Shown: in pieces, positions 22,218 through 52,622 of the stretch | How positions within the stretch are numbered: the stretch's first letter is position 1 | How the letters are laid out: every line of letters starts with the position of its first letter | Notes under the pieces: model-generated | Databases searched by the model: none | What the model saw: the letters and a program-made list of their open reading frames with translations, nothing else | Told to the model about the DNA's origin: nothing | Position numbers and translations under genes: made by a program | Assembly: GCA_051362555.1 (NCBI GenBank) | Contig: CM120642.1 | Span: forward strand, 9,114,001-9,178,000 | Direction of reading: 5' to 3' | DNA: 64,000 bases | DNA from: Lingula anatina | Lineage: Eukaryota; Animalia; Brachiopoda

Positions 22218-24603
<2,386 letters not shown>

Positions 24604-30900: not shown

Positions 30901-33900
30901 AAATTTGAAACGTCATAAATTCAATCCTGATGCAATACACGTCATAATTTTCTCAGAATCCCAGATCCTGATGCTACCAAGCCAGATGACTGGGACGAGA
31001 CTCAACCAGAGACCATAGTAGATCCAGATGCCGCAAAACCAAGTGGTTGGTTGGATGACGAACCAGAGCTCATACCTGATCCAGAAGCAGAAAAACCTTC
31101 CGATTGGTAATTAGATTATTTATTTGCAATATAAATATGTAACCAGAATAGCTATATGAACGTGATATATAGTGGATCCCCCACCCCCCACGAATATTTT
31201 TAAAAAAGACTGTTTTGCAAGTCTGTGAATTTGAATTAAAATTGTTGCAGAGCAAACAAGCTATTGCTGCTATTGCAGGTCAAGCCATCTGCTGGGTAGA
31301 CCAGAGAGGCTGATAGTTATGCTATCACATATGACTTTCACTAGCATATGCAGTCTTTTTAAATCTGTCTCTGGTCTTAAATTACTTTCCACATATAGCA
31401 ACTCACTAGACATCCAGTATTAATATCATAAACTTCTCCTAGTGTATAAGGCAGTGTTGTAATTGATACTTGTTTAACAATATCAACATTGTACATTGCA
31501 GGGATGAGGACATGGACGGCGAGTGGGAAGCACCACAAATTAGTAAGACTTTCTTATTTGTGATTAAACATCATGAAAACTATTAAAGATCTAGAAGAAA
31601 TATTACTAAGTATTCTTTGTGGACATTTATACAGACATTTGTATCTGTCCTTGGTGTCTTATCAGGGGAGATAGTGGATGATGAATGATATCTACTAATG
31701 GAATCAAAATAACTAAATTTAATCACCATCTTTTAAAATAAAGATTAAATATTGTACAAATAAATTCTTGATAAGGTCCATACCTTAAAGAACAATGTAC
31801 TTAGTATTGTAATATTTTGCTTATTTAGATAGTGCTTGTTTTTATAGTTCCGTGGTGGTAATTTCAGGCAACCCCAAGTGTGAGGGTGCCCCAGGGTGCG
31901 GCAAGTGGACCCCACCCACCATCAAGAACCCCAAGTACAAGGGCAAGTGGTCTGCACCCAAGATTGACAATCCCAACTACAAGGTAAATGGTTATAAACT
32001 ATGTTAGATTATGTACCTTATGTTGAATGGAATGTTATCCAATATAATATTACAAGTTCAATCATTTTCTGTTTCATTTGACCATGTATTAAACAACCAT
32101 AAAATTCAGCAATCCTGAAAGAAAATGCCAAAGTTTATAAATGAGTACAAATGTTATAAACATGTAATGATGGAAGTTGTGTGTATCCTTTTTTTGCAGG
32201 GCAAGTGGAAACCAAGAATGATTCCAAACCCAGACTACTATGAAGATCTCACTCCATACAAAGTGACCCCATTTGTAAGTCCAGTATAGCATGATTCCTA
32301 CTTAAAAAATGTCAACTTCATCATGGGAGATATGACACTGCTTTATATATACAAGATCCAGTAAAAGTCTTCTGGATCAAATATATCTGGATATTCGGCT
32401 ATTGTAATTATGCCCCTTCCCCTCCTTCCCCCATACAGAGCTTCACACCTCAGTGCTTACATTTTTTAAGGCCACTTTCCTCTCTGTACAAAAGTACTGC
32501 AAATTACTTTCAAACAAGTCAGTGGTTGTTACTGTGAGATAAAAAAATTTGATGCATCAAACTGGAATTTCTATGCGTTTTTTAAACTTCTTTTTAATTT
32601 TTCAGTCGGCTGTAGCATTAGAGCTTTGGACAATGACAGAGGACATTTTGTTTGACAACTTCATCATCACAGACAGCAAAGCCACAGCAGACTCACTTGC
32701 TGAACAGACCTGGGCTTTGAAGAAGAAGGAGGAGGAGAAAAAAATTAACTCATCAGGAGTAAGATTGTGAAAAGAAATATTCATGATTTTATCATTTGAC
32801 TTCTTTTTTATTTTATTTTTTTATTAATTCTTTTTACTTTTAAGATTCATAAATAGCAGAAATTGAAAATTATAATGCTTTTAATTAGATATAAAATACT
32901 CAAGGCAAGTGGTAAATTTCCATTAACATTTCAGTTTGCAGTCTCTCTGCTAAAATATCCTTCAAGAAAGGAAAATGAAATCATATTCATTATATTGCAT
33001 TTGGAGTGTTGATTTTCAAAGTTTGTTAAAGATCGATAGTACATGTTTGAATTTTTTTCTTCTTTAGCTTATACATAAGCTTTATGGACAAGCATTTTCT
33101 TCAACTGATCCCTTTGTTTTCAGAAAAGTGTTATAGATGCAGTCATGGATGCTGCACAAGAGCGTCCCTGGCTCTGGGCCGTTATAGCCCTCGTAGTAAT
33201 CCTCCCTGTTGTCTTAATAGTAGCATATTGCTGTATGTCCTCTGATAAACCATCTCAGGTAAGAGGGCGAGACTGATTTGAGTCCTGTCAGCAGATGTGA
33301 GATTCAGTGGGGTCAAGGTCGTATCAAATGGATCATGGGATAGCTGGCCTACAAGTCTTCTGAATGGCTGGAAAATGTTGAAAAAAGGTTGCTTAAGATA
33401 AGCAAGCCAACACCATTTTCTGTCAAGCAGTTACCCCCACTGAGTTTCACCTTGCTGATGTTTTCATCATTTGTTTTTCAACTGTGTGTTTTCTTCTGTA
33501 GGTCGGCATATTCCGACAGTTAAAGGATGCTGCTGAGGAGCGTAAATGGCTGTGGGGTGTTTACGCATTTGTTATTCTCATGCCTGTAGTTGTTTTATCA
33601 GTTATTTGTTGTCCAAACAGAGGCCCTCTTAAGGTCAGTTTGGCCTTTGTTTATTTTATGTTATTTATCTTTTTTATTTAGTTCCTCTGAAATGAATTTA
33701 TCTATTTATTCAAAATTGCATTGAAAATTCTGATTTCATGGAGAATTTGAACTTGGAGAATTATTTGTGTCCAAATTTCTGTTGTCTGAACCTTTTAAAG
33801 TTTTAGTTTTCTTTAGTTGGTTGCATGATCTTTACTCACCAAGAGCAAAAGTAACAACAAGTAAAGTATATGAATCTGATTTGTTAGAATAAAGAAACCA

Positions 33901-36900
33901 TTGATTTTTTTCCACCAAGCTTGACATTTTATTTGAGAGGTTTTTGAGAAGTGAATGTTTCTTATCACTACAGTATGAAAGTGTTTCTTTTATCAGAAAA
34001 AGCATCAAGTAAAATTCCCTTTGAATGAAAATATGTGCAGATTGAATATATCATTTGGTATGCTTTAGGTTGATGACATTGCTGCTAGAAAAAAATTTGA
34101 TGATGAAAAGACAGAAGCAGAAGAAGAGAAAGAGGAGGAAAAAGCTGGAGAGGAAGAGAAAGCAGGTAACATTTCTGTTTTGAATTGATATGTTTTTTAA
34201 TTCTTGACAAGTAAATTAAGTAGTAAAAAAGGAAACAAGATTATTTTGCGCTTGCAAAAGCTTAATGCAAAGGAATTTTAAAGGATATCTTGAAAACAAC
34301 CAGCACATCCTTAAATTTTAAAGAATGCAGAGAGGTCTAGTTTTGAAAGTTGATATCTACAGAACAGTGTGATATTTTCTTAAAATAAAGTGATGTAAAT
34401 TGATTGATCTTAAATGTGCTGAATTAATGACAGTTAAGTTTGATTTTTAATTTTAAATTTATTTATTTTATTTTTATTTTATTTTTTATTTTTGAGACCA
34501 TTTATTAGGTTGTATTTTTTTGTATTGTAGAAGCTAGTGAAGAAAGCAAGGCAGGTGGAGATGCAGGAACAGGTGTGAGGAGAAGGACAAAGAAAAGTGA
34601 CCTAGAGGTAGAGGAGGAGGTGAGTTGTCTGTACATAGTCTGATCACCTCTGTTTATGTTGTACCTGACATCTAGCTTGACCAAATTTTACATTATATAT
34701 TCCAACATGTGTATTGACAGTGAAATTGATTTTTATGTACAGACACAGATGTGTCTGTACATATAGCCATCATCTGCGTCTGTCGTCGCCGTCGTCGCTG
34801 TCGTCGCCGCCGTCGCCGTCGCCGTGCACTTTTACCGATAACACGATAAGTGGAAAACCATTTTGCCTTTTGACTTGAAACTTGCAGAACTGATGAATAT
34901 TCATAATACGCAGGTCAAGTTCGAAAATCAGCATGATCGGGTCACTTTTAGGGAATTTATGCTGTTTTTTCACTTTTTTCAGCATATATGCAGCACCGAT
35001 AACACGATAAGTGGAAAACCATTTTACCTTTTGACTTGAAACTTACAGAACTGATGAATATTCATAATACGCAGGTCAAGTTCGAAAATCAGCATGATCG
35101 GGTCACTTTTAGGGAATTTATGCTGTTTTTTCACTTTTTTCAGCATGTATGCAGCACCGATAACATGATAAGTGGAAAACAATTTTACCTTTTGACTTGA
35201 AACTTACAGAACTGATGAATATTCATAATACGCAGGTCAAGTTCGAAAATCAGCATGATCGGGTCACTTATAGGTAATTTATGCTGTTTTTTCACTATTT
35301 TCAATATAAATGCAACACTGATAACACAATATAAGAAAAACGGATTGGCCAATTGTAATTATACTCACAGGAGTGGTCAATCTTACTAAAATGCAGGTTG
35401 AGTTCGAAAATAAGCATAATCGGGCCATTACTTAAGAAGTTATACTGATTTTTCACATTTCCTCAGATTCAATTATTAGGCATGTTAACAGTCTCATTAT
35501 TTAACTAATAAGATGCCTAAAAGTGTTTGTTTGATATTTCCTGCATCTTTACAACATTGTTAGTTGATTGTGTAAAAAACATGGTAAACTTGTTATCATG
35601 TATTGTGTAATAAAGTGTCAAAAATGGAAATAAACTCATATCATTGCAGTTTGTCATATTCAATCATCCACTATGTTCAGAATCTCAGAATGGAGGAAAT
35701 TGGACATTTAACACTGTTCTATTGATACTTTTCCCATCTCACCAATTTTCTTAGTTGGACATATAAAAATGGCAGTAAAATGTTTATATTGTTTTATGTT
35801 AAAAAAGTGTTAAAAATGGAAATAAACCCATTTCAGAACAGTGCTGTCTTGTTTACGTTTTGGCATTATCAAGGCGTGACTTTGAAGTTCCATGGGCCTG
35901 AAGACCTTTGCTAGTCACATTTTCTGAATATCTGTGATACAAATATTTTATAATAAAAAATTGATGGTCATTTAGCTGTTAAACATTATGTAATATTGCA
36001 TCAAAATTTGAAGAAACCCCTATTTTGGGCACTGCTTCCATGATGACCATTTAAGGAAAATCATGTCACTTACTGTTCTCAAACTTACAGGAAAGAAAAA
36101 TGGGACTAAAATACAGCTTCAGTAGGCAATGCAGTCTGTTTGGTATTTTTATGTACAGACACAGATGTGTCTGTACATATTGCCATCACCTGCGTCTGTC
36201 GTCGCCGATGGCGATGGCGATGCCGATGCCGATGCCGGCGCCGTGCACTTTCCTTGTAAACACGATAAGTGGAGGGCAGTTTTACTTTTTGGCTTTATAT
36301 TTACAGAGCTGATGAATATTCATAAAACGCAGGTCAAGTTCGAAAATCAGCATGATCGGGCCATTATTGTAGAAGTTATGCTGTTTTTTCACTTTTCAGC
36401 ATATTTTTCACATTTCCTCAGATTCAATTCTTAGGCATGTTAACAGTCTCATTATTAAACTAATAAGATACGTAAAAGTGTTTGTTTGACATTTCCTGCA
36501 TCTTTACAACATTGTTAGTTGATTTTGTAAAAATGATGGTAAACTTGTTATCGTATTGTGTAATAAAGTTTCAAAAATGGAAATAAACTCATATCATTGC
36601 AGTTTGTCAGATTGAATTATTCACTATGTTCAGAATCTCAGAATGGAAGAAATTGGACATTTAACACTGCTCTGTTGATATTTTTCCCATCTCATCAATT
36701 TTCTTAGTTGATAATATAAAAATGGCAGTTAACTGTTAATTTTGTTTTATGTTAAAAATTGTTAAAAATGGAAAAAAAAAACATTTCAGAACAGTGCTGT
36801 CTTGTTTACATTTTGGCATTTTCAAGTTGTGACTTTGAAGTTCCATGGGCCTAAAGACCTTTGCTAGTCACATTTTCTGAATATCCATGATACTAATATT

Positions 36901-38524
36901 TTATTATTAAAAATTGATGGTCAATATGCTGTTAAACGTTATGTAATATTGCATCAAAATTTGAAAAAAAACTATTTTGGGCACTGCTCCCATGATGACC
37001 ATTTAAGAAAAACCATGTAACTTACTGTTCTCAAACAGTACAGTAAATATGTACAGATGTGTCTGTACATATTGCCATCACCTGCGTCTGTCGTCGCCGT
37101 CATCGCTGTTGCCGGCACCTTGCACTTTCATTGTAAACACGATAAGTGGAAGGCAGTTTTACTTTTGGGCTTCATATTTAAAGAGCTGATGAATATTCAT
37201 AAAATGCAGGTCAAGTTCGAAAATCAGGATGATCGGGCCATTATTGTAGAAGTTATGCTTTTTTCTTTCACTTTTCAACATATATGCAACACTGTAAACA
37301 CATTTCAAGGAAAACCGATAGGCCTGTTGTCGTGAAACTCTCAGGAGTAATCGATCTTACTAAAACGGAGGTCAAGTTCGAAAATTGGCATGCAGCCTGA
37401 GTTGGAAAAGCAGTCTAATTGGCTTCTTTTTCTGGAAGTTATACATTTTCAAAGTGTGAACTTGAACTCTCATGGGCCTGAAGCCTTATGCTTGTTACAC
37501 ATTTTACTTTCATTGGTATTACCTGTTGAGCATAATTAAAATTTGATGTTGAATTTACAGTTTAACATAATGTACTTTTGCATCAGAATAAACAGTAGCC
37601 TATTTTGTGCATAGTTATTTCCTGCTTTTTGTCTGTACATTTGACAGCTTTGCTGCCTTGTTATTTATTTATTTATTTATTTTGACAGTTAAACAGTTTT
37701 TTGTGAAAATTTAATTTTTCACATATTGGCATTTTCAAGGTGTGACTTTAAAGTTCCATGATCTTGAAGACTTTTGCTTGTCACATTTTCTGAATGTCCA
37801 TGTTACTAATATTTTATTAATAACATTTGATTGTCATTATGCTGTTAAACATTATGTAATGTTGCATCAAAATTTGAAGAAACCCCTATTTTGGGCACTG
37901 CTCCTATGATGACCATTTAAGGGAAATCATGTCACTTACTGTTCTCAAACTTACAGGAAAGAAACATGGGTCTAACATACAGCTTCAATAGGCAACGCAG
38001 TCTGTTTGGTAAATTTTTCTGGCAATTTAACAGTTTTTTGTGAAAATTTAATTTTTCACTTATTTGCATCTTTATTTTCTGTTCTTTGTCTGTACATTTG
38101 ACAGCTTTGCTGCCTTGTTATTATTTAACAACAGCTTTATTATCTAAAAAATTGTCTCAGAACAAGGAAGGTGATGATGAAGAGGAAGAAGAAGAGGAAG
38201 CTAGTGAGTCACAAAGCAATAGTTCACCAAGGTAAGCATTTTTTATCATTTAGATGTACAGCTATTTCTTACAAATTGCAAATTAATTACAGTGATGTGT
38301 TATAATAGATAAAAAATAATAACGAAACAAAAGAAGTAACCATTTCTGTACAGTGTATACAAAATACTTGTGTAATGGGTCTCATATTTTTGACATAATT
38401 AATCAGAACTTTTTTCTCATTCATGAGTCTTTTAATATTTCTATTGGGGTGAAAAATTTAATTTAATCCTATGTTTTTGCTTTTCAGAAAATCTCCTAGG
38501 AAAAGAAAACCAAGAAAGGACTAG
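26392..38524 (+). CDS. CANX: Calnexin; exons 26392-26487, 26704-26783, 27206-27264, 27987-28051, 28428-28504, 29223-29304, 29575-29691, 30013-30088, 30325-30403, 30629-30703, 30957-31106, 31502-31542, 31868-31983, 32200-32274, 32606-32758, [33124-33258 or 33502-33633], 34069-34165, 34531-34619, 38161-38231, 38488-38524
   Basis: Signal peptide; lectin motifs [20 protein letters not shown] and [11 protein letters not shown]; P-domain repeats ([35 protein letters not shown]); ERPWLW-TM-CC; acidic tail ending [14 protein letters not shown]. Confidence 0.96.
27938..27981. repeat. (TTA)n microsatellite directly before a calnexin acceptor
   Basis: Direct reading; it abuts TGTAG|GAAAG at 27987. Confidence 0.9.
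33124..33258 (+). CDS. CANX: Calnexin transmembrane exon A
   Basis: 135 nt, phase 0-0, cag|...|gtaag. Encodes [45 protein letters not shown]. Confidence 0.9.
33502..33633 (+). CDS. CANX: Calnexin transmembrane exon B (paralogous alternative exon)
   Basis: 132 nt, phase 0-0, tag|...|gtcagt. Encodes [44 protein letters not shown]. Confidence 0.85.
34731..38119 (+). mobile_element. Helentron/HINE-like non-autonomous element, family B, with a nested family-B copy (36147-37662), in a calnexin intron
   Basis: 5' hairpin TATGTACAGACACA-G-ATGTGTCTGTACATA; (GTCGCC/GATGCC)n microsatellite; 161-bp tandem units (CAGGT at 34911, 35072, 35233, 35394); 3' subTIR TGTCTGTACAT followed by stem-loop GACAGC-TTT-GCTGCC and TTGTT. 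T-rich insertion site with no TSD. Confidence 0.8.
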
Positions 38525-52163: not shown

Positions 52164-52266
52164 CCAGTAATTACGCCGCGGTGTATTCAGGGTACAGACC
52201 GTGATCACAAGATACCGCAAATAGATTTTTAGAAAGTAGATTTTTCATGTGAACGCAGCCTTAATT

Positions 52267-52440
52267 GGGGGAATCTCGATAGTCCGAAGGTTCATTGGTC
52301 CGAAGGTTCATTGGTCCGAAAAGTGGTAACATTTTCATCGACTTTTTAATCAAAGGTTCATTGGTCCGAAGGTTCTATAGTGAACATTCGGACCAATGAA
52401 CCTTCGGACTATTGAACCTTCGGACTATCGCTACGGCCCC
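52267..52440. mobile_element. Foldback/MULE-like MITE built from 16-bp subrepeats
   Basis: TSD CCTTAATT (52259-52266, 52441-52448). GGGG...CCCC ends. Tandem TCCGAAGGTTCATTGG in the left arm and its reverse complement in the right arm. Confidence 0.8.
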
Positions 52441-52622
52441 CCTTAATTAACTGAGTTTCCAGAAATCTAGGTTAAATTTCCAGGAATCTAGTGAAATTAA
52501 TAGACTGACAACTTTGGCAATGTCCACCTGTGAAGAAAGAGGTGCTCTCAGTGGTATGTTTTATTTGCATTCAATGTTATAATTCTTTCTTTTCTTTAGT
52601 TCTGTTTAGTTTTAAGCATTCA

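Follow-up and report, generated by a model that had tools for sequence, protein, structure and literature searches.

A predicted intronic stem between two mutually exclusive membrane-anchor exons of calnexin in Lingula anatina

For exon 17 of insect Dscam, steric hindrance and RNA structure were reportedly invoked together by Yue et al. in 2013. This exon is a two-exon cluster that encodes alternative transmembrane segments (PMC8042237), and the structure assigned to it in the table of one review comprises 15 bp over about 1000 nt (PMC6027157). A steric limit on the distance from donor to branch point, at ~50 nt, is described for vertebrates, where the tandem duplicated exons 4a/4b of OGDH and 2/3 of alpha-tropomyosin are kept apart by a donor-to-branch distance of less than ~50 nt (PMC7969005; PMC5740500). 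In these genes, the branch point lies linearly near the donor, with a long pyrimidine tract free of AG after it. The same review table ties docking/selector helices of 13-22 bp to mutually exclusive exons in Dscam1 (exons 4, 6, and 9), 14-3-3zeta (exon 5), srp (exon 4), and human ATE1 (PMC6027157).

The locus described here lies in a window of 64,000 nt, the whole stretch of Lingula anatina DNA that was analysed, and concerns a calnexin gene. Typical calnexin has a single transmembrane anchor, whereas in Lingula the anchor exon is duplicated and its copies (exons A and B) are used alternatively. Like Dscam exon 17, the calnexin pair consists of two alternative transmembrane exons; unlike it, the calnexin stem is predicted to span 24 bp over 173 nt, lies wholly within the intron that separates the two exons, and occurs in another gene and another phylum. 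As in Dscam1, 14-3-3zeta, srp, and ATE1, a long intronic helix, here a predicted one, accompanies exclusive exons. However, those systems depend on competing helices and an exon that is looped out, whereas the calnexin stem has no competitor and encloses intron only. The 3' branch candidates of calnexin lie ~200 nt from A's donor and come close only when the intron is folded, and its AG-free zone measures 55 nt, in contrast to the arrangement in OGDH 4a/4b. We found no description of the calnexin pair in the accessible literature, although genome-wide tables of predicted exclusive exons could list it, and the accessible portion of a paper on scallop calnexin makes no mention of isoforms or exons (PMC9680081).

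Two alternative anchor exons and their either/or use

The calnexin gene in the window contains 20 introns within its coding part and encodes a full luminal domain (Pfam PF00262, calreticulin family), and its product follows the calnexin layout of a single anchor, then juxtamembrane cysteines, then an acidic tail. The peptide of exon A has an exact match in one protein, whose record name is Lingula anatina calnexin isoform X1. The peptide of exon B, used alone as a protein search query, gave no matches. RefSeq holds two near-identical Lingula calnexin loci, in each of which isoform X1 carries exon A and isoform X2 carries exon B; the calnexin of the window differs from both by a few residues. 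Exons A and B are 135 and 132 nt long, both phase 0-0, and encode homologous peptides, as expected of a mutually exclusive pair of neighbouring exons (Table 1). Joint inclusion of A and B would leave an open frame of 633 aa, and skipping of both would also keep the frame (544 residues).

Table 1. Features of the calnexin exon pair and its spacer intron (window coordinates; junction reads are sums over four RNA runs)
Feature	Position	Strand	Basis or remarks
Constitutive calnexin exon upstream of the pair	32606..32758	+	Ends in phase 0; joints 32758->33124 and 32758->33502
Exon A, the major form; 45 codons for a transmembrane anchor that ends in AYCCMS	33124..33258	+	Translation; RefSeq isoform X1; junction reads 71 upstream, 83 downstream
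A-B intron, 243 nt, GT..AG	33259..33501	+	No listed read removes it as an intron
Branch-like motif ACUGAU within a 4-bp hairpin's loop; its A33276 lies 18 nt past A's donor	33272..33277	+	Motif match, predicted fold
5' arm of the closing stem	33287..33312	+	Pair probabilities
Inner hairpin 1	33316..33350	+	Predicted fold; absent from the first-pass annotation
Inner hairpin 2, holding both nested stems of the first-pass annotation	33360..33430	+	Predicted fold
3' arm of the closing stem, ending on CUGAU (A33458, -43), candidate branch point	33435..33459	+	Predicted fold
Pyrimidine tract and exon B acceptor; AG-free zone of 55 nt; looser branch candidates at -35 and -21	33460..33501	+	
Exon B, the minor form; 44 codons for the second transmembrane anchor, which ends in [10 protein letters not shown]	33502..33633	+	Translation; RefSeq isoform X2; junction reads 19 upstream, 13 downstream
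Next constitutive exon after the pair, where the acidic cytosolic tail begins	34069..34165	+	Joints from A and from B

The use of the two exons was followed in four of nine RNA runs from three studies, taken by species label, with 6-30% of each run read and a splice joint listed only when at least three reads supported it. Joints of the upstream exon to A were covered by 9, 7, 27, and 28 reads and those to B by 4, 0, 7, and 8, and joints to the downstream exon were covered by 40, 14, 12, and 17 reads from A and by 6, 1, 1, and 5 from B, for a total of 186 junction reads. Exon B thus accounts for about 5-22% of junction reads per run and is the minor form in all four. At the three-read threshold, neither an A-B joint nor a joint skipping both exons is listed in any of the four runs. 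Since listing starts at three reads, up to two A-B reads per run could be hidden, and the read depth at the start of exon B leaves room for about two in one run and for none in the others. Independent inclusion of the two exons predicts ~13 A-B reads against none listed (rough P 0.009). A and B are therefore used as mutually exclusive exons at the RNA level. Because the A+B frame is open, decay following a frame shift is not the cause, and because A+B has no early stop, exclusion acts at splicing or at a later, non-standard step. With exclusion seen in RNA and decay ruled out, an active block is needed, a role for which the stem described below is well placed.

The runs also carry variation of their own. 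X19 and X21 show many fixed exon differences from the window (33133-33246 and 32665-32716), more than X13 and X16, and may come from a divergent population useful for covariation. The acidic-tail exon has length alleles at 34123-34126: in X13, 80 of 119 reads carry a 6-base insertion, as do 15 of 36 in X16, whereas in X19 8 of 25 reads show a 3-base deletion. Elsewhere in the window, one ubiquitin unit and the beginning of another (24289-24552, minus strand) probably represent a polyubiquitin gene; they lie in head-to-head orientation to calnexin, ~1.8 kb ahead of the calnexin start codon. The 3.5-kb calnexin intron at 34620-38160 holds a 161-nt tandem unit in about three copies (34834-35331), with related copies beyond, near short GTCGCC-type arrays; this unit is likely a nonautonomous element.

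The exon pair extends well beyond Lingula. Among the first 10 protein clusters, eight contain both A-type and B-type isoforms (Ostrea, Lineus, Tubulanus, Babylonia, Gigantopelta, Littorina, Dreissena, and Mya), and those of Owenia and Octopus bimaculoides contain A only. Among the next 10, one (Octopus) has a diverged B that ends the protein early, and the other nine, including amphioxus and tunicate, have one type, the calnexin records examined from these two chordate groups showing a single anchor type. A tree of 28 short segments separates A from B with support of 99/96 over 42 columns only, and this split fits one duplication before these phyla diverged. Judged from the sequences, the pair fits one ancient duplication common to Lingula, nemerteans, snails, and bivalves. 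The juxtamembrane cysteine motifs differ by anchor across three phyla, with YCC in A and CLCP or CCP in B.

The isoforms that RefSeq lists for Mya and Dreissena each carry just one exon of the pair. For Ostrea edulis, the RefSeq records X1 and X2 (P0009, P0130) contain both A and B, arranged in tandem, so the oyster may keep the two apart incompletely or not at all; such isoforms would have two anchors, with the acidic tail on the lumenal side of the ER. P0008, an older Lingula gene model that includes A+B, was set aside as evidence, as it also fuses other genes. In the protein group P0154, P0156, and P0023, the Octopus isoforms include a B-like exon that has diverged, and they lack the acidic tail at their end; in a Ridgeia gene model, another hydrophobic stretch comes after A and may be an annelid B.

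The predicted stem and its variation

Folding of the A-B intron (33259-33501) gave the stem arms, coordinates, and pair types reported in the first-pass annotation, with 24 bp rather than ~23: 33287-33294 pairs with 33452-33459 and 33297-33312 with 33435-33450, interrupted by one 2x1 loop. Pair probability is 0.90-1.0 for 23 of the 24 predicted pairs and 0.70 for the remaining one. The three G-U pairs said to form on the sense RNA only are present (33294:33452, 33301:33446, and 33303:33444). Of the two further G-U pairs thought to extend the stem, 33287:33459 is well supported as the end pair (probability 0.9), and 33286:33460 is weak (0.27-0.3). Both named nested stems recur in the predicted fold, and the closing stem is retained when both exons are included. 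A pairing of A's donor with B's pyrimidine tract, with a probability of ~0.78 in the bare intron, is lost from the best fold once the exons are attached and was rejected.

The intron folds with -78.1 kcal/mol, a value equalled by none of 200 shuffles (z -3.45), while the antisense strand gives z -0.24, so that folding is confined to the sense strand. A first helix scan that allowed unlimited small loops was too permissive and was repeated with at most one loop; the stem lies far beyond shuffles in both, and in the stricter scan it reaches -43.0 kcal/mol against a shuffle mean of -18.1, which none of 1000 shuffles attains. Of the clean helices that span at most 250 nt, it ranks second in strength on the plus strand of the 64-kb window, behind the inverted repeat at 52237-52469, and it does not appear in the top 12 of the minus strand. 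The repeat at 52237-52469 is near-perfect, has inner short tandem units, pairs on both strands, and is MITE-like. Within the calnexin stem, the two inner hairpins together give z -2.03. A search against Rfam 15 gave no match at a family's gathering score inside the A-B intron and three chance-level hits nearby.

The intron also stands out within its own gene. Seventeen introns were folded, three longer than 460 nt being excluded; at 25 shuffles each, the A-B intron reaches the lowest z, -3.86 against -2.53 for the next, and its folding energy per nucleotide is -0.31 kcal/mol/nt compared with -0.12 to -0.22 in the other introns folded. Its G+C content of 43% is the highest of the 20 introns, the other 19 having 24-35%. 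The introns at 31107-31501 and 31543-31867, on either side of a 41-nt calnexin exon, fold somewhat better than shuffles (z -2.53 and -2.39, 25 shuffles).

Alleles were collected from genome runs with the same organism label: of ten such runs four were taken up, and three of these cover the locus, the most divergent, X10, yielding no contigs. Six single-base alleles fall in the A-B intron, two at unpaired sites, one outside the stem in weakly paired sequence, and three at paired sites. Each of these last three leaves its predicted pair intact (U-A>U-G, G-C>G-U, and U-G>U-A, the final one in a pair that is only 0.3 probable), and since 57% of transitions at paired sites keep a pair, this would happen by chance with a probability of ~0.19; for lower polymorphism, P is 0.09. 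The alleles G-C>G-U and U-G>U-A lie on one haplotype, with an arm duplex of -37 versus -39 kcal/mol. All pair-keeping alleles are one-sided, no two-sided change occurring among the three covering genome runs, and the pattern is compatible with selection on the stem, for which it is weak evidence.

A pattern scan for orthologues yielded four loci in metagenome contigs, of which one spans the A-B intron, two begin inside exon B, and one is a spliced transcript, and none in genome contigs or viral contigs. The spanning locus (L003) provides one orthologous A-B intron of 480 nt, which is clam-like, its exon peptides resembling those of Mya and Dreissena. This intron folds with z -2.16, as against +0.28, +0.69, and -0.30 for three control stretches of the same gene, and with -0.28 versus -0.15 kcal/mol/nt. 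It contains two long inner hairpins with z -3.79 and -2.91, picked post hoc, the better of which is matched by one of 200 shuffles. There is no clean end-to-end stem in it (198 of 200 shuffles are as good), it folds equally well on the other strand (antisense z -2.40), and its alignment to the Lingula intron is noise. A stably folded spacer intron may therefore be common to Lingula and the clam-like gene, a statement that does not extend to the 24-bp stem itself.

Splice signals and explanations of the exclusion

The first-pass annotation took the CUGAU that ends the 3' arm for the likely branch point, and it correctly placed the stem 29 nt from A's donor and the motif 43 nt from B's acceptor. 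CUGAU is the only strict YTRAY match between -12 and -70 (positions with a minus sign are counted from B's acceptor, those with a plus sign from A's donor); as a candidate defined by motif match, it has company in looser YTNAY matches at -35 and -52, in a CTRAY at +18, and in UUCAA at -21, a further looser candidate read from the sequence. With the stem formed, the predicted distance from A's donor is about 47 nt to the -43 candidate with the bottom helix opened for U2, 36 nt to -35, and 50 nt to -21, compared with ~200 nt along the linear RNA. The effective donor-to-branch distance of about 30 nt in the earlier proposal is thus revised to ~47 nt. When folded distance was modelled across the gene, each of the 17 introns stayed within 50 steps in 87% or more of the structures sampled, and the A-B intron was not set apart; on these models, the trait that marks it from the others is stability, not distance.

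Our preferred explanation, to which we assign a probability of roughly 0.55, is that the predicted, fixed 24-bp stem blocks A-B joining by drawing A's donor too near B's branch point. The stem would form on the nascent RNA and loop out ~170 nt, leaving A's donor about 36-50 nt from any 3' branch candidate, at or under the ~50-nt limit described for vertebrates. No single spliceosome could then assemble from U1 bound at A's donor and U2 bound at B's branch point, so that A's donor would join the downstream exon and B's acceptor would be reached from the upstream exon alone. The -43 motif would also be partly buried, which would contribute to B remaining the minor form. The weakest point of this reading is that modelled distances come out short in every intron, and spliceosome helicases may open such a stem. 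The earlier claim that the stem prevents A-B joining agrees with the exclusion seen in reads, the open A+B frame, and the well-placed stem, the blocking step being the part that we infer. Its variant, in which masking of the branch point prevents A-B joining, did not hold, since splicing from the upstream exon to B needs the same branch point; masking cannot select against A-B and alone would just lower the use of B.

Such masking could nonetheless be the stem's whole contribution, with the stem acting as a regulated repressor of B that only tunes the A:B ratio through burial of the -43 motif, and with splicing proteins or the order of intron removal enforcing exclusion. The -43 box is the costliest of the candidate signals to open (8.6 kcal/mol versus 1.6-3.4 for the others), B is minor in all four RNA runs, stem-loops that hide branch sites have been described for poison exons (PMC11802352), and the clam-like intron has no closing stem, though the isoforms listed for Mya and Dreissena carry one exon of the pair each. 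We nevertheless consider this account rather unlikely, as it requires a second, unseen mechanism of exclusion and masking needs less than a 173-nt enclosure. A different role would fall to the stem if B used the distant branch point A33276 at +18, which would block A-B joining directly, the stem bridging it to the pyrimidine tract and hiding the intervening AGs. Between the +18 motif and B's acceptor there are 15 AGs, 14 of them within the stem and the remaining one 5 nt away; one allele (33277 T>C) changes ACUGAU to ACUGAC and keeps the motif; and opening the donor, the +18 box, and the tract costs 9.6 kcal/mol, as against 14.8 kcal/mol for the -43 box. Distant branch points are described as enforcing OGDH 4a/4b (PMC7969005), and RNA structure as able to bridge branch point and acceptor (PMC5378181). 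However, no pyrimidine tract adjoins the +18 motif, the linear AG-free zone is just 55 nt, one of the 19 other introns likewise has a CTRAY within its first 50 nt, and the clam-like intron shows no comparable motif close to its donor, which makes this use of the stem unlikely. In its linear form, as in OGDH 4a/4b, steric exclusion calls for a long AG-free zone, which is absent from the A-B intron given its 15 AGs from +18 to the acceptor.

The remaining explanations fit the evidence least. That the stem is a decayed inverted-repeat insertion without a role in splicing appears improbable, although such an element is present in the window (52237-52469), the two extending G-U pairs could equally be a direct repeat of 2 nt (TG) on either side, the intron resembles foreign DNA in being G+C-rich, and the stem was not found in the one orthologue. 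Against this, the window holds no other copy (best other match E 0.52), and in the three genome runs, at 80% likeness, just one or two allelic contigs cover the stem, whereas repeats are covered 200 nt away, although a filter can drop contigs. Copy number was judged from the window and the contigs of public runs, at which scale low copy numbers remain compatible. All three inner mismatches become G-U pairs in the sense RNA, for which the chance expectation is 1 in 8, and the stem nearly exactly fills the space between the splice signals. With no second copy in the window, allelic contigs only, and sense-only folding, the stem is unlike the high-copy MITE that the first-pass annotation had named as a possible source. 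Its cited precedents, Dscam1, 14-3-3, and srp, work by competing pairings, and it is very improbable that an arm of the calnexin stem changes partners as the docking or selector sites of Dscam1 exon 6, 14-3-3, and srp do. Systems of this type are common for insect exon pairs (PMC4691838; PMC6071210), but across 32276-34530 no alternative partner of either arm comes within 15 kcal/mol of the main pairing (-22.0 for the 5' arm and -17.3 for the 3' arm against -37.9), and the introns flanking the exon pair fold no better than shuffles (z 0.05 and 1.84).

A broader and speculative reading, which we regard as improbable in its entirety, joins several of these elements. The calnexin anchor switch of lophotrochozoans would predate the split of brachiopods, nemerteans, and molluscs, and its lock would consist of spacer folding free of sequence constraint. 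In Lingula, the stem would bridge to the +18 branch point and hide 14 decoy AGs, and where the lock has decayed, as in the oyster, the product would be a calnexin with two anchors whose acidic tail is flipped to the lumenal side of the ER.

Meaning for calnexin

A strong, sense-specific predicted stem thus occupies the spacer of an ancient in-frame exclusive pair, and a link between the two is plausible. A single non-competing stem in a 243-nt intron offers a near-simplest test of whether folding alone can impose the donor-to-branch limit and thereby render two in-frame exons exclusive, the examples of such exclusion in the cited literature coming from insects and vertebrates. The oyster records with A+B provide a natural comparison. 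For the protein, a core ER chaperone keeps two alternative anchors with differing juxtamembrane cysteine motifs in three phyla. The juxtamembrane cysteines of mammalian calnexin are palmitoylated and influence where the protein localises, and the switch between anchors may therefore change where calnexin acts.
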